Shown piece after piece: positions 2,655 to 61,330 of a stretch of DNA of 64,000 nt. Origin of the DNA: Acidobacteriota bacterium. Lineage in GTDB: Bacteria > Acidobacteriota > UBA6911 > RPQK01 > JAJDTT01. The stretch covers positions 3,360,001-3,424,000 of the forward strand of contig OZ242374.1 of assembly GCA_965209055.1 (NCBI GenBank), written 5' to 3'. Within the stretch, counting starts at the first letter, position 1. The number at the start of each line of letters is the position of its first letter. Both the position numbers and the translations under genes were made by a program. The notes below the pieces were generated by a model. The model made no database searches. It was not told where the DNA came from and saw nothing but the letters and a program-made list of their open reading frames with translations.

Positions 2655-2894
2655 ATGAAGACGACCCTCAACATCGATGATACGGTGATGCAGCGTCTGC
2701 GGGAAGAAGCGGCCCGGCGCGGCACCACCATGTCTGCTCTCGTTGAGGCGGGACTCCTCCGTGTCTTGGGGGGGAGTACGCGAATCGACGATGGACCGGA
2801 ACCCCTGGTACCGTTGCCCACCTGGAAAAGCGGCGGGCTCCGGGTCGGCATCGCCGACCGCGAAGCGCTCTACCAAAAGATGGATGAGGCGTGA
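2655..2894 (+). CDS. Ribbon-helix-helix antitoxin (VapB-like), orphan
   Basis: MKTTLNIDDTVMQRLREEAARRGTTMSALVEAGL is an RHH/VapB-type pattern; no intact toxin follows. Confidence 0.8.
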   Translation: MKTTLNIDDTVMQRLREEAARRGTTMSALVEAGLLRVLGGSTRIDDGPEPLVPLPTWKSGGLRVGIADREALYQKMDEA

Positions 2895-33294: not shown

Positions 33295-33520
33295 ATGATG
33301 ATCGGCAAGGCAGTCGTACTGATCTCAGGTACCCAACCGTAGGCTCTTCAGCGTTGCGGCTACGGCCCAGTACTTGGGAATGTCCATCGGTACGATTCGC
33401 AAACTGGCCGATATGAACATCATCAAAGCCAGAGCCGAATTCGACACCGCCGACCGGCGCCGTCGCGTCTTAGCCCGGGAAGACTTGAACCCCTGCGGCG
33501 ATTCTCTGGAGCCGTGTTAG
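33295..33520 (+). pseudogene. xis: Excisionase/RDF (HTH_17-like), frameshifted
   Basis: MMIGKAVVLISGTQP, one extra base, then RLFSVAATAQYLGMSIGTIRKLAD; directly upstream of int. Confidence 0.7.
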
Positions 33521-33567
33521 GATTCGCCGCAACGGCGAAGAACCCGGATCCAGAAAGGAGGAGATGC

Positions 33568-40237: not shown

Positions 40238-40311
40238 GCGAGTCTCTCCTTTCAATTGCGGGTATCCTAGCAGTCCGTGGCGAAAGTTAAAGCTAGGGTG
40301 AACGGAATCTA

Positions 40312-42951
40312 ATGTCAGGGGTTTCACTCAAGGGTCATCAAAACGGCTGGCGGCAGCACTTGGCCATCGTCGTCATCTTGATCGTGTCCGGCGTTTCCTC
40401 TTCTTGTCAGAGTCCGGCTGATCTTTCCCGACAGGGGGACGCCGAGACAACCCACGACCAAGGTCTTCTGGAAGTCTCCCGGCAGCTTCAGGTGCCGGAG
40501 GGATTCGAGGTGGATCTGGTCTATTCGGTGCCGCTGGAGGAACAGGGTTCCTGGGTGGCGTTGACACCGGATTCCGCAGGGCGGCTGATTACTTCCGATC
40601 AATTCGGGAGTCTCTACCGCGTGACCTTGGGAGACGGAGATTCAGGCACGGAGGTCGAGAAGCTGAATCTTCCCATCGGCCACGCCCAGGGGCTTCTCTA
40701 CGCCTATGACAGTCTCTACGTGACGGTCAACCTGTATCGGACCTCGAAGGAGAAGGTGGCGCAGGGCAGCGGCTTTTACCGGGTGCTGGATACAGACGGT
40801 GATGATCGGTTCGACCAGGTGAAGCTGTTGAAACAATTGGAGGCCGTGGACAACGTGAATGGGCATGGCGAGCACGGGCCCCACGCCCCGGTGCTCGGCC
40901 CCGACGGTCTCATCTATCTGGTTGCGGGCAACGGCACCAAGGTGCCGGAAGGGTTGGCGCCAACCTCTCCATTCCGGAATTGGGCCAACGATCTGCTTAT
41001 TCCGCCCGAACCGGGATTCGTGCCGGCCGGATGGGTTGCCCGGACCGACGAAACGGGTTCGGTCTGGGAGTTGATTGCCGGTGGTTTCCGGAACCCCTAC
41101 GACTTAGCATTCAACGCCGAGGGCGAGCTGTTCACCTACGATGCGGACAGTGAAGCAGGCATCGGCACGCCCTGGTACCGCCCCACCCGCATCAACCAGG
41201 TCGTTTCCGGAGCGGAATTTGGCTGGCGTTACGACACCGGACGTTGGACACCTTACGGCAAGTGGCCTGAACACTACCCCGACAGTGTCGGCAGCGTGGT
41301 CGACGTCGGGTACGGGTCGCCGACCGGCATGGTTTTTGGATCCGGTGCTCGTTTTCCGGCCCGGTATCAGCGGGCGTTGTTCGCCTGTGATTGGGCGTCG
41401 GGGAAGATCTTTTCCGTTCACCTGAAGCCGGAGGGGGCGGGTTATACGGCGGCCTTCGAGCCGTTCCTGACGGGAAGCGCCGTGCCCGTGACCGACATCG
41501 TGGTCAACCGGGACGGACACCTGTATTTCACGGTGGGGGGGAGGGAGGCCAAGTCGGGTCTTTTTCGAATCCGCTACCGGGGAGGCGAAGTCACCGATCC
41601 GGCCAGTCCGGTCGACCATCCCGCAGCCGAGCGGGCACGTGGAATCCGAAGGCGCTTGGAACAGTTCCATGGTCGAGAAGACGTGCGCGCGGTGGCGGAA
41701 TCGTGGCCTCACCTGGCCAGCCCGGATCGCACGCTTCGCTATGCGGCGCGTGTCGCCATCGAGCGTCAGGACCTTGCAGAATGGCAGGATCGCGCGCTGC
41801 GCGAGAACGACCCTGTCGCGTCGATCCAGGCCATGCTGGCTCTGGCGCGAACCGGCCGGGCCGAGTTGCAGGAAACGGTCTTGGGGAGGCTCGGCCGGAT
41901 CCCCCTGGAGCAACTTCCCGAGGATCAACTTCTGGAGGCGCTACGCGCTTACAGCTTGGCGTTTATCCGGATGGGCGGCCCGCGCAAGCCATTGGGCCGA
42001 CAGGCCGCTGCACGGCTTGCTCGGCTCTTCCCCTCCTCCAGCCGCAGATTGAATCAGGAGCTTTGCCGGCTGCTCGTCTACTTGGAGGATCCGGGTGTCA
42101 TCGCCAAGTCATTGAGAATGATCGACTCCGGCGGGCGACAGGACAGGCTGTTCTATTTCGCAGCGTTGAGCCATCTTGGAAAGGGATGGACACTGCCGCA
42201 GCGCCAAATCTACTTTCGTGCCCTGAATTCGTCCCAGGGAGAGTATCTTCGTGCCGAGAAAACATTCGGGCGGAAGGGTCTCAACAGCCGTTTCATCTAC
42301 ACGCTTCAGAACCTGCGGCAATCGGCTGTTGAAACCCTCAGCGACGAGGAACGGACGGCACTGGAGGAGGTCATCGAAGACCAGCGGGCCCTGACCGTGG
42401 CTGACGAGGAACCGGTCCGTGGATTCGTGCGAACTTGGATGGTTGCCGACTTTCTGCCCCTGCTCAAGCAGGTGGCAAGGGGCCGTTCCTACGAGAACGG
42501 CAAGTCTGCCTACGAGGCGGCGGAATGCGCCCAGTGTCATCGATTTGATGACCAGGGAGGCACGACGGGGCCGGACATCACCACCGTCGGAAGTCGTTTC
42601 GATACGCAGTACTTGTTGGAGGCACTTCTCGATCCCTCCAAGGTGGTCGCCGATCGCTTCTTCAACGAGTCGATTCAGATGGAAGATGGCCGTATTCATG
42701 TTGGCCGGGTCGTTTACGACGATGGAAAACTGCTGCGGGTTCGCGCGAATCCGTTCACCCAAAAGGTCACCCAAGTTGCCTCGGACCGGATCAAGTCCCG
42801 CACGGTTTCGAGAATTTCAGAGATGCCGGAAGGACTGCTCGATACCTTTACCGAGGAAGAGGTTCTGGATCTGATCGCGTACATGAGGTCGGGCGGAAAT
42901 CCGAAAGATCCGGCGTTCAATTCTCTTCAGCGAGGAAACGAAGAGCCATGA
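40312..42951 (+). CDS. PVC-type haem-binding protein (sorbosone-dehydrogenase-like propeller, HEAT repeats, cytochrome c)
   Basis: GEHGPH, GFRNPYD, CAQCH, GPDIT, SEMPEGL. Confidence 0.85.
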   Translation: MSGVSLKGHQNGWRQHLAIVVILIVSGVSSSCQSPADLSRQGDAETTHDQGLLEVSRQLQVPEGFEVDLVYSVPLEEQGSWVALTPDSAGRLITSDQFGSLYRVTLGDGDSGTEVEKLNLPIGHAQGLLYAYDSLYVTVNLYRTSKEKVAQGSGFYRVLDTDGDDRFDQVKLLKQLEAVDNVNGHGEHGPHAPVLGPDGLIYLVAGNGTKVPEGLAPTSPFRNWANDLLIPPEPGFVPAGWVARTDETGSVWELIAGGFRNPYDLAFNAEGELFTYDADSEAGIGTPWYRPTRINQVVSGAEFGWRYDTGRWTPYGKWPEHYPDSVGSVVDVGYGSPTGMVFGSGARFPARYQRALFACDWASGKIFSVHLKPEGAGYTAAFEPFLTGSAVPVTDIVVNRDGHLYFTVGGREAKSGLFRIRYRGGEVTDPASPVDHPAAERARGIRRRLEQFHGREDVRAVAESWPHLASPDRTLRYAARVAIERQDLAEWQDRALRENDPVASIQAMLALARTGRAELQETVLGRLGRIPLEQLPEDQLLEALRAYSLAFIRMGGPRKPLGRQAAARLARLFPSSSRRLNQELCRLLVYLEDPGVIAKSLRMIDSGGRQDRLFYFAALSHLGKGWTLPQRQIYFRALNSSQGEYLRAEKTFGRKGLNSRFIYTLQNLRQSAVETLSDEERTALEEVIEDQRALTVADEEPVRGFVRTWMVADFLPLLKQVARGRSYENGKSAYEAAECAQCHRFDDQGGTTGPDITTVGSRFDTQYLLEALLDPSKVVADRFFNESIQMEDGRIHVGRVVYDDGKLLRVRANPFTQKVTQVASDRIKSRTVSRISEMPEGLLDTFTEEEVLDLIAYMRSGGNPKDPAFNSLQRGNEEP

Positions 42952-43681: not shown

Positions 43682-45589
43682 ATGGTGAAACGCCGGCGAC
43701 ATTTTGACCACCCCGGATTCCCGGAATTGCGTGCGTGTTTCTTCGGTGCGGCTTGTATCGCCTTGTTGTTTTTGGTTCCGTCCGCTGGCCGGCTCGAGGC
43801 GCAAGCCTCCGGCGACGAGGCCACACCCGAGCCGATGTTGATTTCGGTCTTTCCTCCCGGCGGGCAGCAGGGTTCCGGCGTGGAACTCGTGATCCGGGGA
43901 GAAGCTCTGGACGGCGCCTATTCGCTCGTCTTTGGTTCCTCCGGCCTGGAGGCCCGGGTCGGCAAAGTCGAGATGATCGAGGGGCCTGATCCGGCGGGTC
44001 CGTATCCCAAAAAGGAGAAATCGCCCTTCTTCTTTCGTGTCACGGCGCGCCTCACCATAGATTCGTCGGTTCCCGTTGGAACCCATCCGTTTCGCCTGGT
44101 CTCTCATCGAGGAGTTTCCAACGCTCTCCACTTCCGGGTCGACGAAGGCGGCGTGATCAGCGAGATCGATACCCCCCATCCGTCCGCCCGGCAGGCGCAG
44201 GAGATTGACGTCCCCGTCATCGTCAACGGCCGGATCGACGAGCACGGCGAGCTGGACGCCTACGGGTTCGACGCGGTGGCCGGTCAGGAGTTCACCTTCG
44301 AAATCACTCAGGCGGCGCATTTCGAGCCGCGCCTCGCCCTTTACCGTCCCACCGGGAGCTGGCTCGATCCCGACCGTCCCACTCGCCTGCTTTTCCGGGA
44401 GCAGGAGTCTTCTGACCTGATTCCGATCCGGCCCGTTTACTCCTACCGCGTGGCGGAGTCGGGACGCTATTTGGTCGAAGTCGCGTCGCTCTTGGGAAAA
44501 GGGGGCCCCGACTGTGGTTATCAGCTTCGGGTTCTGACCACCGGTCCCGCTCCGCAGGCCAGTTCCGAACCCGCGTGGACCGAACGGGATTTCACCCGGA
44601 AGATCGACGGCGAGTGGACCGGCCGGCTCCGTTCCCGGACGGTCCGGCAGACGAATCCCGGTTCCGATTCCACGGAGATCGCCTCCGGCGCCGGGAGCCT
44701 GGCGGCGTCCCCCGATTCTCCGCCTTCGGCAGTGACTCCGGCTCTTGAGAGCCGGGCCCGCCTCCGGGAACAGGAGCCGAACGAGGCGCGCGGACAGGCC
44801 GTGCCGTTGGCCGTGGGAGACATCGTCGAAGGCAACATCAGCGCGCCCGGCGACCGCGACACCTACGCGTTCGAGGGGGAGGCGGGAGCGGAACTGGTGT
44901 TCGAGATCGAGACTTCCGGCGTGGAGCCGCCCCACTTCAACCCGCGCCTGGAGCTTTTGGGAGAAGACGGCGAATCGCTGCTGGCCAACGTTCACAAGCA
45001 CGTGACGGTCTACAACGGCGGTGGCATCCCCAGTACCTTTCTGAAGACGGTCGAACCCAAGATGGCCTACACCCTGGAGCGGAGCGGCCGATACTTCGTG
45101 GAGGTCAGCGACATCACCGCGCGGTACGGCGGTCCGGAATTCGGGTATCGGCTGCTTGTACGCGCTCCGATTCCCCACGTGGGCGCCATCGAAGTGGACC
45201 CGTCCGACCGCATCAACCTGGTCCCGGGACGAGCCCGGAAACTGAGCATCGTTACGCATCAAGAGGAGGGGTTTGCCGGGGAAGTCCTTTTTGACTGTTC
45301 CAACCTGCCGCCCGGTGTGCGGGTTTTTGCGGGAGCGGATGTGGAGAAGAAGGGTAACGCCCCCGTCAGCCAGCAGGAGGAAAATTTCTTGCCCGCTGTG
45401 CAGAAGACGACCCTGGTCCTCCTGGCCGACCCGGATGCTGCAGTCACCCGCATGCCGTCATTGGTCCGCTTGACCGCCAGGCCCGTGGTCGGTGGACGAG
45501 TTGGCGCAGACCTGCCCGTCGCGGAGCTCCTGCTGATGGTGGTCGCGCCTTCCGGTCCGGATCAGGCTGCCGAGCAAGGAGGCTCATGA
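43682..45589 (+). CDS. Pre-peptidase C-terminal (PPC) domain protein of a DUF1549/1501 cluster
   Basis: SVFPPGGQQG, GVSN, NGRIDEHGELDAY, EQEPNE, PGDRDTYAF; start uncertain. Confidence 0.78.
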   Translation: MVKRRRHFDHPGFPELRACFFGAACIALLFLVPSAGRLEAQASGDEATPEPMLISVFPPGGQQGSGVELVIRGEALDGAYSLVFGSSGLEARVGKVEMIEGPDPAGPYPKKEKSPFFFRVTARLTIDSSVPVGTHPFRLVSHRGVSNALHFRVDEGGVISEIDTPHPSARQAQEIDVPVIVNGRIDEHGELDAYGFDAVAGQEFTFEITQAAHFEPRLALYRPTGSWLDPDRPTRLLFREQESSDLIPIRPVYSYRVAESGRYLVEVASLLGKGGPDCGYQLRVLTTGPAPQASSEPAWTERDFTRKIDGEWTGRLRSRTVRQTNPGSDSTEIASGAGSLAASPDSPPSAVTPALESRARLREQEPNEARGQAVPLAVGDIVEGNISAPGDRDTYAFEGEAGAELVFEIETSGVEPPHFNPRLELLGEDGESLLANVHKHVTVYNGGGIPSTFLKTVEPKMAYTLERSGRYFVEVSDITARYGGPEFGYRLLVRAPIPHVGAIEVDPSDRINLVPGRARKLSIVTHQEEGFAGEVLFDCSNLPPGVRVFAGADVEKKGNAPVSQQEENFLPAVQKTTLVLLADPDAAVTRMPSLVRLTARPVVGGRVGADLPVAELLLMVVAPSGPDQAAEQGGS

Positions 45590-48168
45590 GCTTTCACGGG
45601 ACCGATCGATTTACTCTCGCGAGGAATCGCCCACGGCGACTGCGCCCGGCCCTCTGCTCGACCATTGCCGTCGTTGTCTCATTCCTTGCGTCCGCACCGG
45701 CCGCCGTCGTGGAACCCGCGCCGAGCCATGTTCCGACGCTGCTCTCCCTGCGTTTGGTCCCGGAGCAGGTGAACCTTCAGGGCCCGGGGGCTTCCCAGCG
45801 ATTCGTGGCCATGGGGACGTTTGCCGACGGACTGGAGCGGGATCTGACTGCCGCCAGCCGGTTTCATCTCTCCGATACCGAACTGGCCCGTGTGGACGAT
45901 GGCGGTAAGGTCGTGGCCCTGGCGCCGGGGGAGCTGACTCTACGGGTCGAGAACGGAGGCCACGAGGTCCATTCGAGGGTTCGAATCGACACGGTTGCGG
46001 AACCGAGGCCCTTCCGTTTCGATCGCGATATCGCCTCCATACTGACCAAACGGGGCTGCAACGCCAGCGAGTGCCACGGCAGCGTCAAGGGGCAGGGAGG
46101 ATTCAAGCTCTCCCTCGACGGCCTCTATCCGGAAGAAGACCACGAGTGGATCGTCAAAGGTGGGATCTACCAGGTTCTCGTCATGGAATCGGGGGGGCCG
46201 CGAGTCCCCCGGGTGAATCCGGGGCATCCGGAGCAGAGCCTGTTGCTGCAGAAGGCCACCATGCAGGTGGGCCACGTCGGAGGTGAGCGCATCGGCGCCG
46301 ATTCCGCGGACTACGCCACCCTCCTGGACTGGGTCCGGAAGGGGGCCGAATACGGCGATCGGAGTGAAGGCGGGCGGATCGCGCGAGTGACGGTCTTCCC
46401 GCAGGAAGCCGTACTGGACGGCGATGGCGTGCAGCAGCTTCTGGTGACCGCCTACGGGCCCGACGGACGGCGCGAGGACATCAGTCACCAGGCTCGTTAC
46501 GTCTCCCAGAATCCCCACGTCGTGACGGTCGACGAGAACGGCCGCGTTACGGCCACCGGAAGGGGAGAGACGACGGTGCTGGTCCGCACCGCAGGTCATG
46601 CCGTCAGTGCACGCTTCGGAGTAGTGGACGCGTCGGCTCCAGTCGAATTCAGAATCGAGCCCCGCAATCTCATCGACAAGCACGTCTTCGCCAAATTGCG
46701 GAAGTTCCAGATCCGTCCTTCTGCGCTTTCCAGCGATTCGGAATTCCTGCGCCGCGTCTGCCTGGACATCACCGGCACCCTGCCGCCGCCGGATCGGGTC
46801 CGGGAATTCCTGGCCGACACCGACCCTGGGAAACGGGACAAGCTCATCGAGACTCTCCTGGACTCTCCCCAGTACGCGGACTATTGGAGCTTCCTGTTCG
46901 CGGACCTGTTCCGTGTGACCTACACCACCGTGGGCCCGATCAAAGAGGTCAAGGCATACGACGACTGGGTGCGCAACGGCATCCTCCAGAACAAGCGGTA
47001 CGACCGCATGGCGCGCGAACGTATCGCCGCTCAGGGGTACGGGGCTCCCACCCGTCACTTTTTTCGGTATACCGAACTGATCGTGCCCCACGAGGTCATG
47101 GCCGAGCAGGTCCGCCTCTTCATGGGGCGCCGGCTGGATTGCGCCCAGTGCCACAATCATCCCTTCGAGACCTGGAGCCAGGACCAGTTCTGGGGAATGA
47201 CCGCCTTTTTCGGCAACGTCACGCAACTTTCGGATTCTCAGTTGGTTTTCGACAATCCGGAGGGTGGGCGATCCTATGACTTGAAACAGGAGGGGATCAA
47301 GACCGTCCATCCACGCCGGAAGGAAGAAGTCCGGGCCAGATTTATGGACGGGTCATTCCCGACCGGGGAACAGGAGCGCGACCCGCGCCTGGCTCTGGCC
47401 GACTGGATCATCGCCCAGCCCGCCTTCGCTGAGACTATCGTGAACCGGGTCTGGGGCTATTTCTTCGGCCGGGGTATCGTGGACCCGGTGGACGACTTCA
47501 AGGTGTCCAACCCGCCGACCCATCCCGTGCTGCTCTCCGCGCTGGCGGAAGACTTCGTGGAGCACGGCTACGACCTGAAGCATCTCATGAGGCGGATCGT
47601 CCGGTCGCGGACCTACCAGACTTCGGGAGTCCCCAACCGGACCAACAGGGAAGATGGAATCAACTATTCCCGGGCTTTGGCCCGGCCGCTGCAGGCGACC
47701 GTCCTGCTGGACGCCATCTCCTACGCCACCGGAGTCCCGGAGGAGTTTCCGGTGCACCCCAAGACCGTGCGCACCGGCGCGGCTCGCCCGGGGGCCCGGG
47801 CCATCGACCTGATTCCCGAACTTTTCCCCTGTCATTTCCTCGACGTCTACGGACGGTCCATGCGCAAGTCGCTTCCGGAAAAGCCGTCGCTGACGTTGAC
47901 CCAGGCCCTGCACATGTGGGCGGGATCGACCTATACCACCAAGATCACGCAGGAAGGCGGACGTCTCGACCGGGCGCTGAAGGACGGCCTGTCCGATTCC
48001 CAGATCATCGAAGACTTCTACCTGGCGGCGCTGTCGCGATACCCGACCGAACGGGAACGATCCGACCTGGAAGCGTTTGTCCGGGAGGAATCCTCCCCGC
48101 GGCCGGAGCAATTGGCGAACCTGATGTGGGCCCTCATCAGTTCGCGGGAGTTTGCATACAATCATTGA
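45586..48168 (+). CDS. DUF1549/DUF1553 protein with Ig-like (Big_2) domains
   Basis: GCNASECHG, EFLRRVCLDITG, CAQCHNHPF, VNRVW..FFGRG, SREF. Confidence 0.9.
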   Translation: MSFHGTDRFTLARNRPRRLRPALCSTIAVVVSFLASAPAAVVEPAPSHVPTLLSLRLVPEQVNLQGPGASQRFVAMGTFADGLERDLTAASRFHLSDTELARVDDGGKVVALAPGELTLRVENGGHEVHSRVRIDTVAEPRPFRFDRDIASILTKRGCNASECHGSVKGQGGFKLSLDGLYPEEDHEWIVKGGIYQVLVMESGGPRVPRVNPGHPEQSLLLQKATMQVGHVGGERIGADSADYATLLDWVRKGAEYGDRSEGGRIARVTVFPQEAVLDGDGVQQLLVTAYGPDGRREDISHQARYVSQNPHVVTVDENGRVTATGRGETTVLVRTAGHAVSARFGVVDASAPVEFRIEPRNLIDKHVFAKLRKFQIRPSALSSDSEFLRRVCLDITGTLPPPDRVREFLADTDPGKRDKLIETLLDSPQYADYWSFLFADLFRVTYTTVGPIKEVKAYDDWVRNGILQNKRYDRMARERIAAQGYGAPTRHFFRYTELIVPHEVMAEQVRLFMGRRLDCAQCHNHPFETWSQDQFWGMTAFFGNVTQLSDSQLVFDNPEGGRSYDLKQEGIKTVHPRRKEEVRARFMDGSFPTGEQERDPRLALADWIIAQPAFAETIVNRVWGYFFGRGIVDPVDDFKVSNPPTHPVLLSALAEDFVEHGYDLKHLMRRIVRSRTYQTSGVPNRTNREDGINYSRALARPLQATVLLDAISYATGVPEEFPVHPKTVRTGAARPGARAIDLIPELFPCHFLDVYGRSMRKSLPEKPSLTLTQALHMWAGSTYTTKITQEGGRLDRALKDGLSDSQIIEDFYLAALSRYPTERERSDLEAFVREESSPRPEQLANLMWALISSREFAYNH

Positions 48169-48192
48169 GGAGCGGCGGTTTTCTTACCGCCG
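48169..48192 (+). repeat. REP-like palindrome
   Basis: GGAG-CGGCGGT-TTTCTT-ACCGCCG directly after the stop codon. Confidence 0.7.
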
Positions 48193-48267
48193 ATCTCCAT
48201 TGAAACAACGGGCAAAGAGGGATCGGATGACCGCAACGTCGCCCCTCCAAGGACGGACGGAGAAGGA

Positions 48268-49617
48268 ATGTTGAAAGAATATCGTTGTTTCCAGTGCAGG
48301 CGGACCAGACTCGGGCGCCGCGACTTCCTCCGTGCCGGCTCCCTGAGCTTTCTCGGGATGAACGCCGGCGACCTCTTCAGGCTGGAACGTCTCCAAGCGG
48401 CCTCCAACGACAAGCCGGCGGCCGGACAGGCGCAGGCGTGCATTCTCCTCTTCCTGGAGGGCGGTGCCAGCCAGATGGACACCTGGGACCCCAAGGGGAA
48501 CACCAACTTCGGCTCCATCGCCACCAACGTCGACGGCATCCGGATCTCCGAACTCCTGCCCAAGACGGCCCAGCACATGGACAAGCTCTCGCTGATCCGT
48601 TCCATGCGGACGGAGGAGACCAACCATCCGCAGGGAACCATCGAGTCGCTGACCGGCCATCGGCCCAGCCCCACCATGAAGTTCCCGGGATTCGGGTCGA
48701 TCGTGGCCAAGGAAATGGGCGCCCGTAACAACATGCCGCCGTTCACCACGGTCCCCATGCCTTGGGAGAACGACTTTTACAACTACGAGGAGGCCTTCAA
48801 GGGCTCGTACATCGGAGCCGAGTATGACGCCATGGTCCTGCCGGACCCCAGCGCCGAGGAATTCGTCGTGCCCGATCTCCGGTTGCCCAAAACGGTTTCC
48901 GCCGCGGCCATCGAGGATCGAAAGACTCTGCTCAGCATCGTGGACCGGCACTACCGGTCCACCCAGGAGGTAGCCGAGTTCGGCAAGATGGACACGTATC
49001 GCGAGCAGGCGCTGGGCATGATCCTGTCGCCGCACGTCCAGAAGGCCTTCGACCTCTCCAGCGAATCGGAGAAGACCCGGGACGCGTATGGACGCCACCG
49101 CTTCGGACAGAGCGTGCTGATGGCCCGCCGCCTGGTGGAGGCCGGATGCCGCTTCGTCACGGCGGCCGGCTACAAACACGGGCAGTGGGACACGCACGGG
49201 AGCAACGACAAGCGGATGAAGGAAGACTTGACGCCTCCCCTGGATAAGGCGCTCTCCGCTCTGTTGGAAGATCTGGATCAAAGAGGTCTGTGGGAATCGA
49301 CGGTGGTGCTGGTCATGGGAGAGTTCGGACGCACCCCCCACATCAATCCCGGCCTGGGACGGGATCACTGGCCCCACTGCTGGTCGCTGGCGCTGGGCGG
49401 CGGCGGTATCCAGGGGGGACAGGTCATCGGCGTCAGCGACGACCGGGCGGCCTACGTTGCGGAACGCCCCATCTCCATCGGCGACCTTTACGCCACCATC
49501 TACAAGGCGCTGGGCATCGATTGGACCAAGACCTACATGGCCCCCGTGGGTCGTCCCGTCTACATCGCCAACGGTTTCGACGACACCATGGGGCAGCCCA
49601 TCCCGGAATTGATCTGA
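48268..49617 (+). CDS. DUF1501 protein (Tat signal)
   Basis: RRDFL, GGASQMDTWDPK, WDTH, GEFGRTP, GRDHWP. Confidence 0.92.
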   Translation: MLKEYRCFQCRRTRLGRRDFLRAGSLSFLGMNAGDLFRLERLQAASNDKPAAGQAQACILLFLEGGASQMDTWDPKGNTNFGSIATNVDGIRISELLPKTAQHMDKLSLIRSMRTEETNHPQGTIESLTGHRPSPTMKFPGFGSIVAKEMGARNNMPPFTTVPMPWENDFYNYEEAFKGSYIGAEYDAMVLPDPSAEEFVVPDLRLPKTVSAAAIEDRKTLLSIVDRHYRSTQEVAEFGKMDTYREQALGMILSPHVQKAFDLSSESEKTRDAYGRHRFGQSVLMARRLVEAGCRFVTAAGYKHGQWDTHGSNDKRMKEDLTPPLDKALSALLEDLDQRGLWESTVVLVMGEFGRTPHINPGLGRDHWPHCWSLALGGGGIQGGQVIGVSDDRAAYVAERPISIGDLYATIYKALGIDWTKTYMAPVGRPVYIANGFDDTMGQPIPELI

Positions 49618-49626
49618 CAGCCCGTC

Positions 49627-52389
49627 GTGAACCCGTCCGTCAGATCGGATAGCCTCGATACTCCCTGGCCGCTCGGTTCCTGTCCGAATCTGGGCCGTTC
49701 CATCCCGAGTCGGATGCATGCCCTGACCCTGTACCGGGACCAATACGGTCCACCCCGGGACGTGGTCCGCTTGGAGGAGGTAGAGGTTCCACGCCTCCGC
49801 GCGGCCGACGCCCGGGGAGTCCTGGTGGCCGTTCTGGCCAGCGGACCCAACTTCAACACCAATTTCGCGGCTCTGGGACTGCCGGTTCCCGTCTTCGCCC
49901 GGGGCGACAGCGCCATCCTCCACATTCCGGGAAGCGACGCCCTGGGAATCGTGGTGGATGCCGGTCCCGCGGTCCGGTCGGTGAAGGTGGGTCAGGCCGT
50001 CATTCTCGATTCCTGGACCGGACACAACATTCGAGGCTATGAGACCCACGACGGCTTCAATGCCCAGTTCGCCATGGTCGACGAGGAACGGGCCATTCCG
50101 GTCCCTCCCTCCCTCGGCAGCCATAGTCCCGAGCAGTTGTCGGCCATGCTGCTCACCTATGGAACGGCCTACCGCACCGTGGTGGAGCGCCTGGCCGTCG
50201 GTCCGGGAGACTCCATGCTGGTCCTGGGAGGAGGGAAGGGAACCAGCTTCGCCGCCGCGCAACTGGGAAAGGCCCTCGGGGCCCGCGTGGTCCTGATGGG
50301 TTCCAATCCGGCGTTGGGCCGGTCGCTCATCGAGCGGGGAATCGCCGACTCCTTCGTCGACCGGCGGCGGATCCCGGCCGAAGTCTTCGGCGTGGTCGAC
50401 GTCGGGGAGGAATACGGCGAGTGGCATGCCCGGACCGAGCCCTTTCGCCGCATCGTGCTGGCCGCCAACGACGGCCGTCCGGTGGACACGGTCTTCGAGC
50501 ATACCGGGGGCGCCAATTTCCCCCTGCTGGTTTCGGTTCTTGCCCCCAAGGGACGGCTCGCCTTCTTCGGCGCCACCGGACGGGGCCTCAAGGGCGAATA
50601 CAAGGAGACCTTCTTCTACGACGGACGCCGCTTCGTCCTGGATGCCCGCTGGGTCTGGATGCGCCAGAAGCAGGTCCTCTTTCGGAGTGGGACCCCAGCG
50701 GAGATCTTCTCGGAGATCGGGCTGCTGCCGGGGCGAAGAGGGCTGGTCTGGGGGGCTGACCGGTACGCGCGGGAGTTCGTCGAAGCGGCGCTTCAGCGGC
50801 GGGCGGACCTGGCGGTGGTCGCGTCCCGTTCCCGGGAAGCAGAGGGACTGGCCGCTCTGTCCCGCATGGGCCTCGACGGGTCGCGGATCATCGACCGCGA
50901 CCGGTTCCGGCTACCCGTCGACATGCCGGATCCCTTGACCGACAAAGGGACGCCGAATCCCGCCTACATGTCGGACTTCATGCTGGACGCACGCGCTCTC
51001 GGGAGGGCCATCTGGGAGGTCTTCGGCCCCCGGGTCAATCCGGACTTCATCGTGGAGCGTCCCGATCAGAGCACGCTCCATGTCAGCACCTTCCTGTTGA
51101 GGGACCATGACGAGAAGGACGAGATGTCCTGCGGCATCATCGTGGCCCGCGGGTCGTCCGATCTGACCGTCTCCGGATCCCACATGTATCGGGCCGCTCA
51201 GGCCCGGGAGACGGTTCGCCTGTTGGCCCGGAACCGGATCGTCATGGACCAGGAGGACCTGGAGGTGGTGGATCTGGCGGGTTTGCCGGAGATCCAGCAG
51301 AAGATGCTGGACGGCACCATGGCGAAACCCAAGGGTGTGTCGCTCGTCCAGGCGGACGGTGCGGGCCGGAAGATCTCCGACTACGAGGTCGAATACCTGG
51401 GCAGGACGCTCCGCGAGGCCGACCCGGAGAACGGCCGGTTCATCGACTTGAGCCTGATCGAAGAGGTGGGAATCCTCACCCTCAGGCGGCCGGACGCCCT
51501 GAATGCCCTCAATCAGGAACTGCTGGCCCAGCTTGCCCAACTGACGGAGGAGCTCGGAGCGCACGGAACCCTCCACGGAGGGAGGACGACCGCCCTGATC
51601 GTGCGCGGTTCCGGACGCGCATTCGTGGCGGGGGCCGACGTTCAGGGCTTTGTGGGAGGGGATGCCGAGTCCATCCGGCGGCTGGCGGCGGAGAACATGG
51701 CTCTCTTCCGGCGGTTGGAATCCCTGCCTCTTCCGGTGGTGTCGATCGTGGACGGCTTCGCGCTGGGCGGCGGCAACGAGCTGGCCATGAGCACCCACTA
51801 TCGAATCGTCACCGAAAACGCCGTCATCGGACAGCCGGAGGTGAAGCTCGGCATCATCCCGGGATATGGGGGCATGCAGCGGCTGCCGAGGCTCGTCGGT
51901 CCGCGGAGAGCCGCCGAAATCGCGGTCAACGGAGAGTCGGTGGACGGACGCACGGCGGTCCGGATCGGGCTGGCCCACGAGTTCCATCCCGCCTCCACCG
52001 CCCTGACCAGGGCGTTCCGGGTAGCGGACGAGCTCCGGTCCGGTGCGCGCCGATTCCAGGCGTCCGATTGGGACGAGCTTGCCGCCGGTCAAAGCCGGGC
52101 GTTGGAGGCGCTTTACGGAAGCGATGCCGTGAGCGGAATCCTGCAATCACCCACGCCCGTCGGCGAAGCGGCGGAAGGTCTTCGGGCCGCTCGCCGGTTC
52201 GCGGCCCGGCTGGCCCTGGATGCCATGCGGTTCGGCTACGAACGCGGATTCACCCAGGGTATGGACAACGACGCCAAACTGTTCGGCGAAGCCGTAGCAT
52301 CGGAGTCCGGTCAGTGGTGGGTGCGGCGCTTCCTGGCGAAAGATCCCAGACAGTCCGCCTTCGTGACGTTGCTGCAGCCTGAGGGTTGA
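49627..52389 (+). CDS. Fusion of a crotonyl-CoA carboxylase/reductase-like MDR domain and an enoyl-CoA hydratase domain
   Basis: PNFN, HIPGSD, GYET, LTYGTAYR, VFEHTG, WMRQK, GSH; C-terminal AFVAGAD, GGGNEL, GQPEVKLG. Confidence 0.85.
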   Translation: MNPSVRSDSLDTPWPLGSCPNLGRSIPSRMHALTLYRDQYGPPRDVVRLEEVEVPRLRAADARGVLVAVLASGPNFNTNFAALGLPVPVFARGDSAILHIPGSDALGIVVDAGPAVRSVKVGQAVILDSWTGHNIRGYETHDGFNAQFAMVDEERAIPVPPSLGSHSPEQLSAMLLTYGTAYRTVVERLAVGPGDSMLVLGGGKGTSFAAAQLGKALGARVVLMGSNPALGRSLIERGIADSFVDRRRIPAEVFGVVDVGEEYGEWHARTEPFRRIVLAANDGRPVDTVFEHTGGANFPLLVSVLAPKGRLAFFGATGRGLKGEYKETFFYDGRRFVLDARWVWMRQKQVLFRSGTPAEIFSEIGLLPGRRGLVWGADRYAREFVEAALQRRADLAVVASRSREAEGLAALSRMGLDGSRIIDRDRFRLPVDMPDPLTDKGTPNPAYMSDFMLDARALGRAIWEVFGPRVNPDFIVERPDQSTLHVSTFLLRDHDEKDEMSCGIIVARGSSDLTVSGSHMYRAAQARETVRLLARNRIVMDQEDLEVVDLAGLPEIQQKMLDGTMAKPKGVSLVQADGAGRKISDYEVEYLGRTLREADPENGRFIDLSLIEEVGILTLRRPDALNALNQELLAQLAQLTEELGAHGTLHGGRTTALIVRGSGRAFVAGADVQGFVGGDAESIRRLAAENMALFRRLESLPLPVVSIVDGFALGGGNELAMSTHYRIVTENAVIGQPEVKLGIIPGYGGMQRLPRLVGPRRAAEIAVNGESVDGRTAVRIGLAHEFHPASTALTRAFRVADELRSGARRFQASDWDELAAGQSRALEALYGSDAVSGILQSPTPVGEAAEGLRAARRFAARLALDAMRFGYERGFTQGMDNDAKLFGEAVASESGQWWVRRFLAKDPRQSAFVTLLQPEG

Positions 52390-52398
52390 CCGGGGGCG

Positions 52399-52974
52399 TC
52401 AGCGGTTCCTGGCCGGATTCTCCAGGAACAGCCTGAAACGGACCTGCTCCCAATCGCCCCAATTCCTCCTCCTCTGAAAGAGAAAGTGGACCTCCGAGTC
52501 CTCCGATCCGCGAAAGGCCCGGAGCGTATTCTCCCAGTTTTGCTCCTGGTCCTGGTACTGCGGCCGGCCCGTCTTGCTCAACTGCCTTTCTTCCGCCGTT
52601 CCCAGCGGGACGGCCGTCGACCGGAGATACAGAGTTCCGACCAAGGGAATGACTCGATCCGTCTCCGTTTCAGCGCCCTCTTGGCCCGCGACAGTGGTCA
52701 CGACCTGCTCGCCCCGCAGAAAGACCAGGGAACAGCCCTCCTCCTCGCGGCGGACTTCCAGATCGAAGCCACCCCGGTCCAACCGCTTACCGCCCTCCGT
52801 GTAAAGAGTTCGATCCAGCCGAATCTCCGTCACGTAGACCTCGCCGGCTGCCGTCGCCACTCCGAGTCCCACCATCACAATCATCGTCAGAAGGGATCTT
52901 GTAGTCTGCCGAGCTATTCCCACGGAGGTCTTGACAATAGCGCTCCGTACAGACTTCACGTTGCAATCCCACAC
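52399..52974 (-). CDS. Hypothetical exported protein
   Basis: Hydrophobic signal-like segment; true start probably downstream of 52974. Confidence 0.55.
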   Translation of the reverse strand: MWDCNVKSVRSAIVKTSVGIARQTTRSLLTMIVMVGLGVATAAGEVYVTEIRLDRTLYTEGGKRLDRGGFDLEVRREEEGCSLVFLRGEQVVTTVAGQEGAETETDRVIPLVGTLYLRSTAVPLGTAEERQLSKTGRPQYQDQEQNWENTLRAFRGSEDSEVHFLFQRRRNWGDWEQVRFRLFLENPARNR

Positions 52975-53463: not shown

Positions 53464-54933
53464 TTAGCTCGCCTGAAGGAGCCGTTGCGAGAGGTCGTTG
53501 TATCCGCCCACGTCAGTGAGCCGCCGGTCTCGTCCCTGGAAGAAGTACGTGAGTCCTTCGTGGTCCAGACCCAGCAGAGAGAGGATGGTGGCGTGCAGGT
53601 CGTGGACGTGGACCTTGTCCTCGGTCACCTTCATTCCCAGATCGTCGGTGGCGCCGATGGCCTTTCCTCCCTGGATTCCGGCTCCCGCCATCCAGCAGGA
53701 GAAGCCGTACGGGTGGTGGTCCCGGCCGAGTTTCCCCTGCACGAATGGGGTTCGGCCGAACTCTCCGGAACAGAATACGAGGGTGCTGTCCATCAGTCCG
53801 CGCTGTTTGAGATCCTGCAGGAGGCCGGCGATGGGCTGGTCCACCTTCCTGGAGTTTTCCCAGTGGTTTCGGGAGCACTGCTCGTGGCCGTCCCAGTCGG
53901 TGCTGATCAGGTGCACGAAACGGACGCCGCGCTCCAACATGCGCCGGGTCAGCAGGCACATCCGCCCGAACTTCCGGCTCTTTTCCTGGTCCAGTCCGTA
54001 GAGGCGCCGGACGTGTTCCGGCTCCCGGGAAAGGTCCACCAGTTCCGGCGCAGCGGTCTGCATCCGGAAGGCCAGCTCGTAGTTGGTGATGCGAGCCGCC
54101 AGACTCGTGTCGTCGGCGCGGTCCTGGTAGTGCCGCCGGTTCGATTTCCGGATCCAGTCCAGGAGGTTCCGCTGATCCGCCGCGGTCATCTCCCGGGGCG
54201 GAGTCAGGTCCTTGAGGGGAGAGCCCTCGGAACGGAGCAGGGTGCCCTGATAGATGGCGGGCAGGAACCCGGAGCCGAAGTGGTTCCGGTTGGTCCGGCC
54301 CCACAAGTTGCCGTCGGTCATCACCATGTAGGCGGGAAGGTTGTCGTTCTCGCTCCCCAGGCCGTAGAGGATCCAGGACCCGACGCTGGGATGCCCGTTC
54401 AGGATGGAGCCGGTGCTGAGATAGTTGCTCGCCGGACCGTGGACGAAGGAGTCGTGGTAACAGGAGCGCACCACCGCCAGATCGTCGGCATGGGCGGCCA
54501 CGTTCCGCATGAGATCCGAAATTTCCAGGCCCGAGTCGCCGTACCGGTGGAAGGGGATGTCCGAACCCATCAGCTTGGCATCTCCGGCGGCGATATTGGC
54601 GAAATTGAGATCGTCCGAGGCGAAGCTCTGAGGAAGGGTCTGACCATCGAAGCGGGTCAGGACCGGCTTGGGATCCAGGGTGTCCACGTGGCTGGCGCCT
54701 CCCTGGAGATAGATAAAGACCACGTTGCGGCCGCTGGCGCTCTGGTGCGGCGGCTTGGGTGCGAGCGGGTGCGGGACCGGTTCCCGGGTTCCCTTGGCGG
54801 AGGCCGTCCGGAAGAACGATTCCCGCTCCAGCAGATGGATCAACGGCAGGGAGCCGAAGCCCATTCCCCACTTGCTCAGAAACTCCCGGCGGGAGCCGGC
54901 CGTCTCATGGCGCTGGCAACGGAAGGGATTCAT
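53464..54933 (-). CDS. DUF1501 protein (Tat signal)
   Basis: SRREFL, GGASHVDTLDPK, WDGH, GEFGRTP, GRDHHP, VHDLHAT. Confidence 0.92.
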   Translation of the reverse strand: MNPFRCQRHETAGSRREFLSKWGMGFGSLPLIHLLERESFFRTASAKGTREPVPHPLAPKPPHQSASGRNVVFIYLQGGASHVDTLDPKPVLTRFDGQTLPQSFASDDLNFANIAAGDAKLMGSDIPFHRYGDSGLEISDLMRNVAAHADDLAVVRSCYHDSFVHGPASNYLSTGSILNGHPSVGSWILYGLGSENDNLPAYMVMTDGNLWGRTNRNHFGSGFLPAIYQGTLLRSEGSPLKDLTPPREMTAADQRNLLDWIRKSNRRHYQDRADDTSLAARITNYELAFRMQTAAPELVDLSREPEHVRRLYGLDQEKSRKFGRMCLLTRRMLERGVRFVHLISTDWDGHEQCSRNHWENSRKVDQPIAGLLQDLKQRGLMDSTLVFCSGEFGRTPFVQGKLGRDHHPYGFSCWMAGAGIQGGKAIGATDDLGMKVTEDKVHVHDLHATILSLLGLDHEGLTYFFQGRDRRLTDVGGYNDLSQRLLQAS

Positions 54934-54948
54934 GGAAAATACCGCTTC

Positions 54949-57573
54949 TCAGTCAATATGGCTGAACTCGTTGAGATTAAACAGGCCCAGGCAGAGCTGG
55001 GTCAAGGCAGCCGCCCGGGGCCGCGGGATTTTCTCGAGCCCGGCCGGCAGCTCGGACCAACTCTCCGCCTTCACCTCGCGGGCCCGGGCCGACATCAATT
55101 CCAGCGCCTCCTTCTTCTCCTCGGGCGAAGGCGCCCGGCTCAAGGCCAGCCGCCACGCCTTTTCGACCCAGGCTGCCGGGTCGTCCCCCTCGCTCTCCAC
55201 CAGCCGGGACGCGAGGGCTACTGCCTGCCGGAAGGCCATCCGGTTGTTGAGAAACCAGAGGGCCTGCGGTGCCACCGTGGTGACGTCACGGCGGGGGCAG
55301 CTGACGGCGTTCTGGGGGCTGTCGAAGACGTCGAACATGGGAAACCGGAGATTGCGGCGGCTGAGGATGTAGACGCCCCGGCGGTATTGGGATTCGGGGT
55401 CCGCAGCGGTCAGCCAACCTTTGGGATCTCCCAGGCTTGCCATCTCTTCATCTCCCAGCGGCGGCGCCGCCGGACGGCCGTACGCCCCGAGATTCAAAGT
55501 GCCGGCCACCGCAAGTGTGGCGTCCCAGAGGACTTCCGCTTCCAACCGCCGCCGGTTCATTCTCCAGAGGAGACGGTTTTCGGGGTCCAGCGAGAGAGCG
55601 GCCGGGTCGCTGTGCAAGCTGGACATGCGGTAGGTGCTGGAGTTCAGGATCAGCCAGTGCATCGCCTTGAGGCTCCAGTTCCGGGCTGTGAACTCGACGG
55701 CCAGCCAATCCAGGAGCTGCGGATGGCTGGGCGCCTCCCCCTGGCGGCCGTAGTCGTTGGGAGTTCTCACCAGTCCTCGTCCCAAATGCCACTGCCAGAG
55801 CCGGTTCACCATGACCCGGGCGGTGAGAGGGTGGTCGGGACGGCTCAGCCAGAGCGCCAACTGCTTGCGGGGGCGGTTCTCCATTGATCCCGAGAAGACG
55901 CCGTTGGGATCGGTCTCCCCGCTCAACACCGCCGGGAAGCCGGGTCCGACCCGTTCCTCCTTTTGTCTGAACTCGCCTCGACTCAAGACGTGAACGGGCG
56001 CGGAAGCCTCCCGATCGTAATGACCCAGCACTGAAGCGGTCGGCAACTCGAGCAGTCCTTCGAACCGGACCAGATTGGAGCCCTCGATCTCGGAGACCTT
56101 GAGTACGGCGCGGGCCAGCCCGATAAGCAGATTTTCGTGCTGGTCCTTCTCCGGCTCGGTCAGAGCCTCCTCGAACTTGACGGCGCGAACCGCGTCCATC
56201 AGGAGCTTCGCCAATTCTTCCTGCTCCGGGGTCCGACGATCCTTTTCCGTCTCGTAGGCCTCGACCACCTCCGGAGCAAATTTCGCTTTCTTCTCCTGTT
56301 CGATCCTCTTCTTGACCTGTTTCTCGAATCGGCGGTAAGCGGAACGGCTTTCGTCCACGGCGATGACGGCGGGGTAGTCGATGTTCCGCGAGACCGCCTG
56401 AATGGGACTCATGACGGGGATGTCGACCTTGCGGCTGTTGGCAAACAGCGCTTGGAAGGCGTAGTAGTCCCTCTGGCTGATGGGGTCGGCCTTGTGATCG
56501 TGACAGCGGGCGCAGCCCAGGGTGAGGCCCAGGAAGGCGGCGCCGGTGGTGTCCGCCCAGTCGGTCAGTTCCTCGGCGCGCAACTGCTGGGCGTCCTGCA
56601 TCGATTCCAGCACCTCGGGTCCGAACGTGTAGAGGCCGGTTCCGACCCGGGCTTCCAGGTATTCGTTCTTCTTCAGGGGAATGGTCCGGCTCCCCAGGAG
56701 CTCGAACCGTTGGGGCCAGAGCTCGTCTCCGGCGATCTGCTCCTGCAGGAAACGGTCGTAGGGCTTGTCCTCGTTGAACGACTTGATGACGTAGTCCCGA
56801 TACCGCCAGGCGTTGGGATAGTAGTGATCCGACTCGTATCCGCTGCTGTCGGCATAGCGGACCACGTCCAGCCAGTGCCGGGCCCAGCGCTCGCCGTAGC
56901 GCGGCGATTCCAGCAGCTCGCCCACCATCCTGCCGTAGGGATCCGGCGAGTCGTCTCCCAAGTGCCGGTCCATCTGCTCCGGCGTCGGCGGAAGTCCGAT
57001 GAGGTCGAAGTAGGCCCTTCGGATCAGGGTTCTCCGGTCGGCCTCGGGAGCCGGTTTCAAGCCCTTCTCCTGCAACCGGGCCAGCACGAAGGCATCGATG
57101 GGGTTGCTGACCCAACCGTCCGCATCCGCCGCCGGAACGGCAGGCCGCCGGAGCTTCCGGAACGACCACCAGGAGGGTGGGGAGGAGCCGTCTTCGCGAA
57201 CGCTGGCCCATGGGAGGCCGCCGTCGATCCAGCGGCGCAGCACTTCCAGATCCGCAGCCGCCAGCGGAGAGCCGCCCGGGGGCATCTTCAGCTCGCCGTC
57301 ATGGGACGCGGCCAGAAACAGGAGGCTCGATCCGGCGTCTCCGGGGACCGCCGCCGGACCCCGGTGGCCGCCTTCCAGGAGAGTTTGCCGACTGCCCAGA
57401 TCAAGTCCCCCCTGGCGCGCCACGCCATGGCAGGCAAGGCAGTTCCGCTCCATGATCCGGAGAGCATCCGCCGCCAAAGATCCGTCCGCTTCGGAACGGC
57501 TGGAACTACCCTCCAGAAACGGCAGCAAGCAACTGGATACGACGGCGAGTAGCAACCACGGCCGACTATTCAT
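54949..57573 (-). CDS. DUF1549/DUF1553 protein with planctomycete cytochrome c domain
   Basis: CLACH, YGERWARHWLD, CARCHDHK, RVMVNRLWQ, NLNEF. Confidence 0.92.
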   Translation of the reverse strand: MNSRPWLLLAVVSSCLLPFLEGSSSRSEADGSLAADALRIMERNCLACHGVARQGGLDLGSRQTLLEGGHRGPAAVPGDAGSSLLFLAASHDGELKMPPGGSPLAAADLEVLRRWIDGGLPWASVREDGSSPPSWWSFRKLRRPAVPAADADGWVSNPIDAFVLARLQEKGLKPAPEADRRTLIRRAYFDLIGLPPTPEQMDRHLGDDSPDPYGRMVGELLESPRYGERWARHWLDVVRYADSSGYESDHYYPNAWRYRDYVIKSFNEDKPYDRFLQEQIAGDELWPQRFELLGSRTIPLKKNEYLEARVGTGLYTFGPEVLESMQDAQQLRAEELTDWADTTGAAFLGLTLGCARCHDHKADPISQRDYYAFQALFANSRKVDIPVMSPIQAVSRNIDYPAVIAVDESRSAYRRFEKQVKKRIEQEKKAKFAPEVVEAYETEKDRRTPEQEELAKLLMDAVRAVKFEEALTEPEKDQHENLLIGLARAVLKVSEIEGSNLVRFEGLLELPTASVLGHYDREASAPVHVLSRGEFRQKEERVGPGFPAVLSGETDPNGVFSGSMENRPRKQLALWLSRPDHPLTARVMVNRLWQWHLGRGLVRTPNDYGRQGEAPSHPQLLDWLAVEFTARNWSLKAMHWLILNSSTYRMSSLHSDPAALSLDPENRLLWRMNRRRLEAEVLWDATLAVAGTLNLGAYGRPAAPPLGDEEMASLGDPKGWLTAADPESQYRRGVYILSRRNLRFPMFDVFDSPQNAVSCPRRDVTTVAPQALWFLNNRMAFRQAVALASRLVESEGDDPAAWVEKAWRLALSRAPSPEEKKEALELMSARAREVKAESWSELPAGLEKIPRPRAAALTQLCLGLFNLNEFSHID

Positions 57574-59181: not shown

Positions 59182-59316
59182 CGGATCTGGGTAAATGCCG
59201 CACGGTGGCAGAATCGACTTTAACCGGTTTTCTTGTTAGTCTCGCCGGGTTTCCAGCGGGCGGTCGCCGGACCGGCGCCGGCTCGCACTGAGTCCCATCC
59301 AACACCAGAGGCGCTC

Positions 59317-61297: not shown

Positions 61298-61330
61298 ACC
61301 TCGCCGTTCCATCCCAGCCGGAGAAGCAAC

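Follow-up and report, generated by a model that had tools for sequence, protein, structure and literature searches.

The question raised by this locus is what kind of enzyme results when a reductase of the crotonyl-CoA carboxylase/reductase (Ccr) type and an enoyl-CoA hydratase (ECH) are encoded by a single reading frame. The frame is located in a 64,000-nt stretch of an Acidobacteriota genome (assembly GCA_965209055.1, contig OZ242374.1, positions 3,360,001 to 3,424,000), which is termed the window. Enoyl-CoA carboxylases/reductases (ECRs) have been described in PMC6628652 as the fastest known CO2-fixing enzymes, and a sequence-only reading of the window had proposed that the fusion may be a new CO2-fixing architecture. 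The gene is real, intact and strongly conserved. Its product is probably a relative of propionyl-CoA synthase (PCS) with swapped domains and no ligase, in which a 3-hydroxyacyl-CoA dehydratase is coupled to a Ccr-type enoyl-CoA reductase and acts on C3 units. PCS is a model multi-enzyme "nanoreactor" that hides a toxic intermediate, and it also occurs in Chloroflexus. The link of the fusion protein's family to a malonyl-CoA reductase (MCR)-like module, shown below, is new. A literature search, which did not cover the primary PCS papers and supplements, yielded no description of such a reductase-hydratase fusion or of its fusion to MCR.

Domain layout of the open reading frame

The locus is a single open reading frame of 920 aa with a GTG start and a TGA stop. 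The stop codon of the upstream DUF1501 gene lies 9 nt before the GTG. This start appears plausible, given a conservation of at least 90% for W14, P20 and P27 among family members. The features are:

49627..52389 (+), whole gene, reductase-hydratase fusion, 920 aa
49666..50196 (+), GroES-like catalytic part at the N-terminus of the Ccr-type reductase, aa 14–190, from Pfam ADH_N, alignments to Ccr 4gi2 and to PCS, and conservation
49849-49860 (+), NFNT (N75, N77, T78), within the GroES-like part
50035-50046 (+), GYET (Y138, E139), within the GroES-like part, which also holds GSD (S103)
50197..50682 (+), Rossmann domain 1, aa 191–352, likely NADPH site, from ADH_zinc_N 209–321; holds GGGKGTS (201–207), VDTVFEHT and WMRQK
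50683..51174 (+), second, degenerate Rossmann-like domain, aa 353–516, from second Ccr/AntE alignments, PCS-type likeness and the model; holds GLVWGA, DMPDP (432–436) and PDFIVERP
51175..51414 (+), C-terminal segment that re-enters the catalytic domain of the reductase, aa 517–596; starts at GSH, H519 being the equivalent of KsCcr H365
51415..52065 (+), crotonase-fold ECH core, aa 597–813, from Pfam ECH_1/ECH_2, PDB matches and invariant residues
51778-51780 and 51838-51840 (+), codons of E718 and E738 of the hydratase, whose oxyanion hole is AGADV (668–672)
52066..52386 (+), helical extension at the C-terminus of the hydratase, aa 814–920, as in PCS and FadB-type multifunctional enzymes

The protein is a Ccr-type reductase joined to an ECH, as had been proposed. 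Both domains of a medium-chain dehydrogenase/reductase (MDR) pass their cut-offs, narrowly in each case: ADH_N at positions 65–160 (27.6 bits, cut-off 23.5) and ADH_zinc_N at positions 209–321 (32.1 bits, cut-off 31.8). The hydratase passes by a wide margin, with ECH_1 at positions 614–814 (E = 3.5e-39, 135.1 bits, gathering cut-off 27) and ECH_2 at positions 614–885 (113.7 bits, cut-off 27.2). The top NCBIfam model is TIGR01751, crotonyl-CoA carboxylase/reductase, at residues 27–350 (168.3 bits, E = 2e-49; 135.2 bits in the genome search), which falls far short of the equivalog cut-off of 378.55 bits.

Every motif quoted in the sequence-only reading is present in the 920-aa protein: NFNTNF (75–80), GYET (137–140), VDTVFEHT (286–293), WMRQK (344–348), GLVWGA (372–377), PDFIVERP (472–479), GSH (517–519), GGGNELAM (714–721, with E718) and GQPEVKLG (735–742, with E738). 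An AlphaFold2 model of the protein (pLDDT 88.9, pTM 0.88) shows the reductase and the hydratase packed confidently against each other.

Relationship to propionyl-CoA synthase and Ccr

The comparison with PCS drawn in the sequence-only reading holds up in sequence as well as in structure. PCS of Erythrobacter sp. NAP1 (6eqo) is the top PDB match by sequence (E = 2.6e-47); the ECH part aligns at positions 613–906 with PCS 905–1203, and the reductase part at positions 39–492 with PCS 1266–1727. PCS is also the top structural match in Foldseek, ahead of all Ccr structures (E = 1.3e-35, 654 columns), and the VIA server aligns positions 8–591 of the model with PCS 1229–1840 (Z = 31.9, rmsd 3.4, 539 residues). 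As described in PMC10266731, the PCS reaction begins with the activation of 3-hydroxypropionate, continues with dehydration to acrylyl-CoA and ends with reduction of the latter. PCS has a closed reaction chamber in which acrylyl-CoA is sequestered.

The two proteins share a Ccr-type reductase with the same second Rossmann-like domain, through which the structural alignment runs, and a hydratase with the same helical C-terminal extension on the same polypeptide. They differ in that the amino acid identity is only ~24%–25%, the fusion protein has Thr where PCS has Asp after the CO2-anchoring Asn, and GSD where PCS has GSG. In addition, WMRQK follows Rossmann domain 1 in the fusion protein but is found just before GSH in PCS, and a loop of ~8 aa before GYE, common to Ccr and PCS-type sequences, is deleted in the family.

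The domain order differs as well. The Pfam architecture is reductase (1–596) followed by hydratase (597–920), the reverse of the hydratase-reductase order in PCS, and no acyl-CoA ligase (AMP-binding) domain is present, in agreement with the earlier claim. The PCS-like proteins P0208 and P0469 do carry AMP-binding/ACAS_N domains. Because the three-domain order ligase-dehydratase-reductase is absent, the fusion protein is not a PCS. Another hallmark of PCS, a reductase with an extra Rossmann-like domain, is present by sequence, by VIA and by the motifs L.PG...YGA and PD..VER. The fusion protein works most like a PCS minus its ligase.

The similarity to Ccr/ECR structures (KsCcr 6OWE, 4GI2, AntE 4Y0K, CinF 4A0S) consists of the MDR fold, with the N-terminal positions 14–350 collinear, and of equivalents of N81, T82, S119, F/Y170, E171 and H365. 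Unlike these enzymes, the fusion protein has a 168-aa extra domain and a hydratase, and its carboxylation is putative. A maximum likelihood tree built from the core of the reductase (an alignment of 39 rows and 369 columns) shows a Ccr-type group (support 100/100) that splits into true Ccr (96/90) and an insert-bearing clade (94/89). The latter unites the family of the window's protein (100/100) with the group of PCS-type reductases (100/99) and with a fusion of reductase and MaoC. The family thus falls outside the clade formed by sequences over the Ccr cut-off, and since the fusion protein scores under the TIGR01751 cut-off as well, it does not belong to the curated Ccr family.

The hydratase domain resembles FadB-type crotonases and short-chain hydratases in fold (VIA Z = 32–35, model positions ~594–910), in its oxyanion hole and in both catalytic Glu residues. 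The comparison with 1wdk_B residues 1–298 (FadB-type crotonase plus linker) gives Z = 35.1 over model positions 594–906. In contrast to FadB-type enzymes, the hydratase is preceded by a reductase and no 3-hydroxyacyl-CoA dehydrogenase follows it.

The second Rossmann-like domain

An insertion of ~165 aa between WMRQK and GSH had been noted, together with an echo of the NADPH domain in it. The spacing is 168 residues. AntE (4y0k) aligns twice to the fusion protein, at positions 14–248 and again at 446–536, and a true Ccr from an acidobacterial genome (L092) does likewise, at positions 16–349 and 421–584 (E = 8e-10). The AlphaFold2 model shows a beta-alpha-beta pattern of alternating strands and helices at residues 371–517. 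The echo is therefore supported by the double alignments and by the model, and it is on these that a duplication rests, since a direct profile-profile comparison of Rossmann domain 1 and the insertion is weak (hhalign E = 0.072, 69 columns). This weakness implies that the second copy has strongly diverged. It has no Gly-rich dinucleotide motif (GLVWGAD, compared with GGGKGTS in the first domain), but within it G376, D378, M433-P434-D435, P472, D473 and R478 do not vary among the 47 aligned sequences.

The insertion is not peculiar to this protein. The motifs L.PG..l..YGA and PD..VER..Q.TL are found in all PCS-type sequences aligned and are absent from true Ccr, and the relatives that bear the insertion form one clade (94/89). 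The second Rossmann-like domain is shared with the PCS-type reductases and was presumably inherited with them as a structural feature.

Active sites and the CO2 pocket

According to PMC6628652, the CO2 pocket of KsCcr consists of N81, F170, E171 and H365, with T82 and S119 in a second shell. Alignment to Ccr chains and to true Ccr sequences shows the pocket equivalents to be N77, Y138, E139 and H519, and those of the second shell to be T78 and S103. The residues named in the sequence-only reading are all there: N77, Y138, E139 and G517-S518-H519 are invariant in the 47 aligned sequences, as are the hydratase residues E718 and E738 and the oxyanion hole AGADV, and for N75, T78 and S103 conservation is 90% or more. 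Both active sites are intact and strongly constrained.

This pattern may be taken to mean that the enzyme is an obligate reductive carboxylase, in which CO2 is added to acrylyl-CoA or another enoyl-CoA, (2S)-methylmalonyl-CoA (or an alkylmalonyl-CoA) is the physiological product, and the fusion is a channelled dehydratase-carboxylase. In favor of this, the Tyr at the F170 position is compatible with carboxylation, as KsCcr F170Y keeps 100% of it (PMC6628652, Table 1), and the Ccr of M. extorquens carboxylates acrylyl-CoA at 40% of the crotonyl-CoA rate, as reported in PMC10266731. The second shell also fits. The KsCcr change T82D lowers turnover more than 50-fold, on the account in PMC6628652. 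Asp is found at the T82 position in five PCS-type rows with an intact motif (NFND/NYND), and the motif of the divergent rows P0270 and P0280 ends in Asp as well; all six PCS-type rows have GSG where the family has GSD. An Asp-to-Ser change at this position of PCS reportedly raises carboxylation. With Thr, as in Ccr, next to the CO2-anchoring Asn, where PCS has Asp, the alignment leans towards carboxylation.

The pocket residues themselves do not decide the matter, because PCS-type reductases keep N, Y-E and mostly H (two divergent rows are without the His) and yet reduce; reviews on PCS describe it as a reductase with only promiscuous carboxylation, which engineering has increased. Also against an obligate carboxylase are the position of the family outside the true Ccr clade, with 168 bits against a cut-off of 378.55, the deleted loop before GYE, and a PccB/MmdA-like carboxyltransferase in the organism's own genome, with which a carboxylating reductase is not needed. 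Carboxylation by the fusion enzyme is plausible but unproven, and carboxylation as its obligate and physiological role appears possible but not probable.

Among the true Ccr sequences of Acidobacteriota (L089-L095), five of the five aligned that score over the cut-off read GYQT, which places Gln at the position of the CO2-pocket Glu (F/Y-E in KsCcr and M. extorquens Ccr).

Family members and related architectures

The architecture is not a one-off but belongs to a widespread family. A word-indexed protein search gave 513 matches, the best 120 of which have 63%–91% identity and lengths of 822–982 aa. The family is tight (62%–93% identity), and clustering at 50% identity reduces all of it to one representative. 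A collection of species-representative genomes gave 176 candidate stretches, 141 of which code for a relative, and 80 loci were kept for the locus counts given below. All 80 are from genomes titled as metagenome-assembled. The lineages include Acidobacteriota, Desulfobacterota-type "Deltaproteobacteria", Deferrimicrobiaceae, Actinomycetota, Gammaproteobacteria, Gemmatimonadota and Methylomirabilis. Among 301 sampled Acidobacteriota genomes, the family pattern (a match to model positions 3/4–331 within an open frame of at least 915 aa) is found in 8, all from the order of the window's organism. In public databases the proteins are labelled "enoyl-CoA hydratase" or "SDR family oxidoreductase".

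Other fusions occur around the same insert-bearing reductase. The PCS-type group also holds forms with the reductase-then-hydratase order: P0210 (939 aa), P0220, P0204 and a segment of the 6910-aa P0203. P0210 represents a family of 939 aa with the same domain order as the window's protein and only 33% identity to it. P0204 (2388 aa) has the order ECH-ligase-reductase-ECH, P0203 has its reductase-hydratase unit at positions 2419–3345, and P0242 (711 aa) joins the reductase to a MaoC dehydratase. The architectures of P0242, P0204, P0203 and P0210 are uncharacterised. Further multi-domain relatives with Ccr-like matches in Acidobacteriota are at G214:C58:3139-3972 (1963-aa frame), G038:C72:25739-26629 (2411-aa frame), G281:C2:141415-142305 (840-aa frame) and G286:C2:1085541-1086386 (959-aa frame).

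A malonyl-CoA reductase-like module in relatives

One family member, P0177 (2552 aa), extends past the hydratase. A tblastn search with its tail as query revealed a module of ~1660 aa directly after the gene in 21 of the 80 loci. It is fused in frame in 15 of these and is a separate gene 6–17 nt downstream in the other 6. Three of the remaining 59 loci end within 600 nt of the gene and are not judgeable for the module. A protein search for longer forms returned 50 proteins, 49 of which are such fusions (2026–2647 aa) and one PCS-like. The module had been overlooked by clustering of the gene neighbourhoods, as it is often part of the same open reading frame. Single polypeptides of ~2550 aa are found at L067:9755-17716 (+), at 14 other loci, and as P0177 and P0421-P0468.

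In the PDB the module matches full-length malonyl-CoA reductases best (8hjw, 8hi4). The match falls into two stretches whose order is permuted: module positions 539–752 resemble MCR SDR3 and positions 1090–1311 resemble MCR SDR1. The MCR-C fragment 6k8v aligns to the module over 380 residues, and the Protein Atlas gives SDR clusters alone, one of 1239 aa. In the residue numbering of RfxMCR given in PMC10470521, the SDR1-like part keeps equivalents of T165, Y172, R175, Y178 and K182, and the SDR3-like part keeps Y743, R746 and Y749, i.e. the YxxRxxY malonate motif described there. K753, the Lys of YxxxK, aligns with a Gln, and a Lys is found three residues on. The module, which is a feature of relatives and not of the window, thus resembles RfxMCR (8HI4) in having both catalytic SDR domains and the malonate motif. 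It differs in that its halves are permuted, with the C-type half first, and in an extra N-terminal domain of ~530 aa.

This N-terminal domain has no Pfam match, no recognisable fold and no sign of a ligase or CoA-transferase. An AlphaFold2 model of it (pLDDT 83.6) gives a best Foldseek match of E = 0.35 and a best VIA-wide match of Z = 8.8, to helical hairpins alone. The faint Foldseek rows (E = 0.35 or worse) are mostly zinc-peptidase-like helical proteins. The first ~540 aa of the module (L048:12739-14358 (+)) have a mean column identity of 71% among 17 sequences, with H156, E160, H167 and E174 among the invariant residues. The domain is positioned where an activity that activates 3-hydroxypropionate would be needed.

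Because the module carries the catalytic SDR domains of MCR together with the malonate motif, it points to a tie of the family to 3-hydroxypropionate and to C3 chemistry. This bears on the proposal that the enzyme is a fused crotonase-Ccr specific for C4 units, which would convert (S)-3-hydroxybutyryl-CoA via crotonyl-CoA to butyryl-CoA or ethylmalonyl-CoA and serve an ethylmalonyl-CoA-type or butyrate-type route. A C4 substrate would suit the top NCBIfam model, the crotonases that are the best single-domain PDB matches of the hydratase, the related reductase P0242 with its MaoC dehydratase, and a Tara homologue labelled at its source as K14446, the KEGG number for Ccr. Apart from the module in 21 of the 80 loci, it is opposed by PCS, the nearest structural relative, which handles acrylyl-CoA, and by the window's genome. 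There, no sequence scores over the TIGR01751 cut-off for Ccr and no dedicated ethylmalonyl-CoA pathway marker was identified, only two large subunits of the methylmalonyl-CoA mutase (MCM) type. A C4-specific function is therefore unlikely.

The domain content of the long fusions mirrors the reaction order of the "3HP route" of the HOPAC cycle, which is given in PMC10266731 (McLean et al. 2023) as malonyl-CoA, 3-hydroxypropionate, 3-hydroxypropionyl-CoA, acrylyl-CoA and the ECR product. The cycle is described there as an in vitro, "new-to-nature" design, whereas the natural fusions show no recognisable ligase domain. It is conceivable, though doubtful, that in the family a natural acrylyl-CoA carboxylase/reductase is linked by channelling to the dehydration of 3-hydroxypropionyl-CoA, that the ~2550-aa fusions hold most of the reductive half of 3-hydroxypropionate CO2 fixation, and that the stand-alone copy is the same carboxylating module alone. 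Such a route would skip the ATP-dependent propionyl-CoA carboxylase and would be a natural counterpart of HOPAC.

A FastTree phylogeny of 80 family members, rooted on P0210, places the module-linked forms on early branches and the window's protein within a clade (45 rows, support 100) made up of stand-alone genes. Linkage to the module requires at least 5 state changes on this tree, whose root is uncertain, as it depends on one very long outgroup branch. Five genomes with a long form were also scanned (assemblies of 1.5–3.4 Mb, completeness not established); an HpcH/HpaI (malyl-CoA-lyase-type) gene is found in 2 of the 5 and MCM-like genes in all 5.

Proposed function

We favor the following scheme. 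The C-terminal crotonase would dehydrate a short (S)-3-hydroxyacyl-CoA, most likely 3-hydroxypropionyl-CoA, to acrylyl-CoA. The N-terminal Ccr-type reductase, presumably with NADPH, would at once turn this reactive intermediate into propionyl-CoA and/or, with CO2, into (2S)-methylmalonyl-CoA, so that the intermediate may be channelled between the two sites. The second Rossmann-like domain may substitute for the partner subunit of an MDR dimer and help to close the active site. The window's genome, a single 6.08-Mb contig, has one PccB/MmdA-like carboxyltransferase gene and two MCM-like large-subunit genes (NCBIfam resolves these no further), and because of these the organism could use either product. 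The substrate may come from uptake, or from a breakdown yielding 3-hydroxypropionate or acrylate. Besides the kinship with PCS, the intact active sites and the MCR-like module of relatives, the ADP-forming acyl-CoA synthetase gene close by in 11 of the 80 loci speaks for the scheme.

Several observations weigh against this scheme. No orthologue of the MCR-like module is present in the window's genome, where tblastn gives generic SDR matches with at most 35% identity over ~200 aa. The module was likewise not found in any of 5 other genomes with a stand-alone copy. An ADP-forming synthetase of the type that neighbours relatives (see below) is absent from the window's genome at E = 1e-20. None of the neighbours is conserved across the whole family among the 80 loci, and the window's gene sits between DUF1501/PSD1 gene pairs, which are uninformative on CoA-ester metabolism. 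The hydratase matches generic short-chain crotonases (5z7r, 119 bits) as well as it does PCS (105 bits). Finally, the stem of the family is long in the maximum likelihood tree (1.68 changes per column), and together with the missing loop before GYE this means that substrate or mechanism may have shifted.

Another alternative is that reductase and hydratase do not work one after the other, or that the substrate belongs to an unrelated class (for instance a longer, branched or ring-derived enoyl-CoA in a degradation pathway), with the likeness to PCS only ancestral. The long stem, the family-specific indels, the varied gene neighbourhoods and the lack of the MCR-like partner in stand-alone genomes are all in keeping with this. 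However, both active sites are very tightly conserved across phyla, reductase-hydratase fusions have arisen repeatedly and independently (P0210, P0204/P0220, P0242, PCS), and the two domains are packed confidently in one model (pTM 0.88). This alternative is very improbable, and the coupled C3 dehydratase-reductase remains the preferred reading.

In many uncultured lineages the family joins the CO2 pocket of Ccr to a body of the PCS type, with the domain order reversed. The fusion to an MCR-like module, seen in roughly one in four of the loci, leads from an imprecise domain label to a pathway hypothesis that can be tested. Should the enzyme carboxylate, it would offer a ready-made natural component for synthetic CO2-fixation cycles that save ATP, and it would point to a 3-hydroxypropionate route as yet unrecognised in anoxic sediments and soils. 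Should it only reduce, it would be a compact, ligase-free PCS analogue for channelling studies.

Gene neighbourhood and other features of the window

The open reading frames of the 80 loci were clustered by all-against-all BLAST, and 30 cluster representatives were annotated with Pfam. An alanine-dehydrogenase-type gene is found upstream in 19 loci and an ADP-forming acyl-CoA synthetase gene nearby in 11, both mostly in the module-linked part of the family (e.g. L056:4100-5209 (-) and L056:5213-7264 (-)). An aldehyde dehydrogenase gene is directly downstream in 5 loci that have no module.

The sets of DUF1501 and PSD1-PSCyt2 (DUF1553/DUF1549) genes that flank the fusion gene in the window are at 43682-49617 (+) and 53464-57573 (-); a gene for a PPC-domain protein precedes the upstream set. 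Co-transcription of the upstream set with the fusion gene is possible because the set ends 9 nt before the gene's start. A scan for promoters and terminators gave 0 promoter-like sites, and terminator-like sites were no more frequent than in shuffled sequences. Four metatranscriptome runs from one study contain short contigs mostly 90%–95% alike to parts of the gene; these represent relatives and not the window's organism, DNA carry-over is possible, and the contigs do not prove that the gene is transcribed. Tail to tail with the gene, at 52399-52974 (-), is a conserved open reading frame of 191 aa with no Pfam match, whose equivalent occupies the same position in 9 related loci of Acidobacteriota (cluster c2).

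In genome G000, two HMGL-like genes (G000:C1:607541-608722 and 39560-40741) are in opposite orientation ~567 kb apart and have identical tblastn statistics. The pair may represent an exact duplicated region; the contamination estimate for that genome is 7.4%. The window also encodes a type I restriction-modification specificity subunit at 28167-30089 (+), a phage-type integrase at 33514-34656 (+) in a stretch of lower GC content (0.56–0.58 at 28–34 kb), and a 2-oxoacid dehydrogenase E1alpha/E1beta/E2 cluster at 59233-62500 (+).

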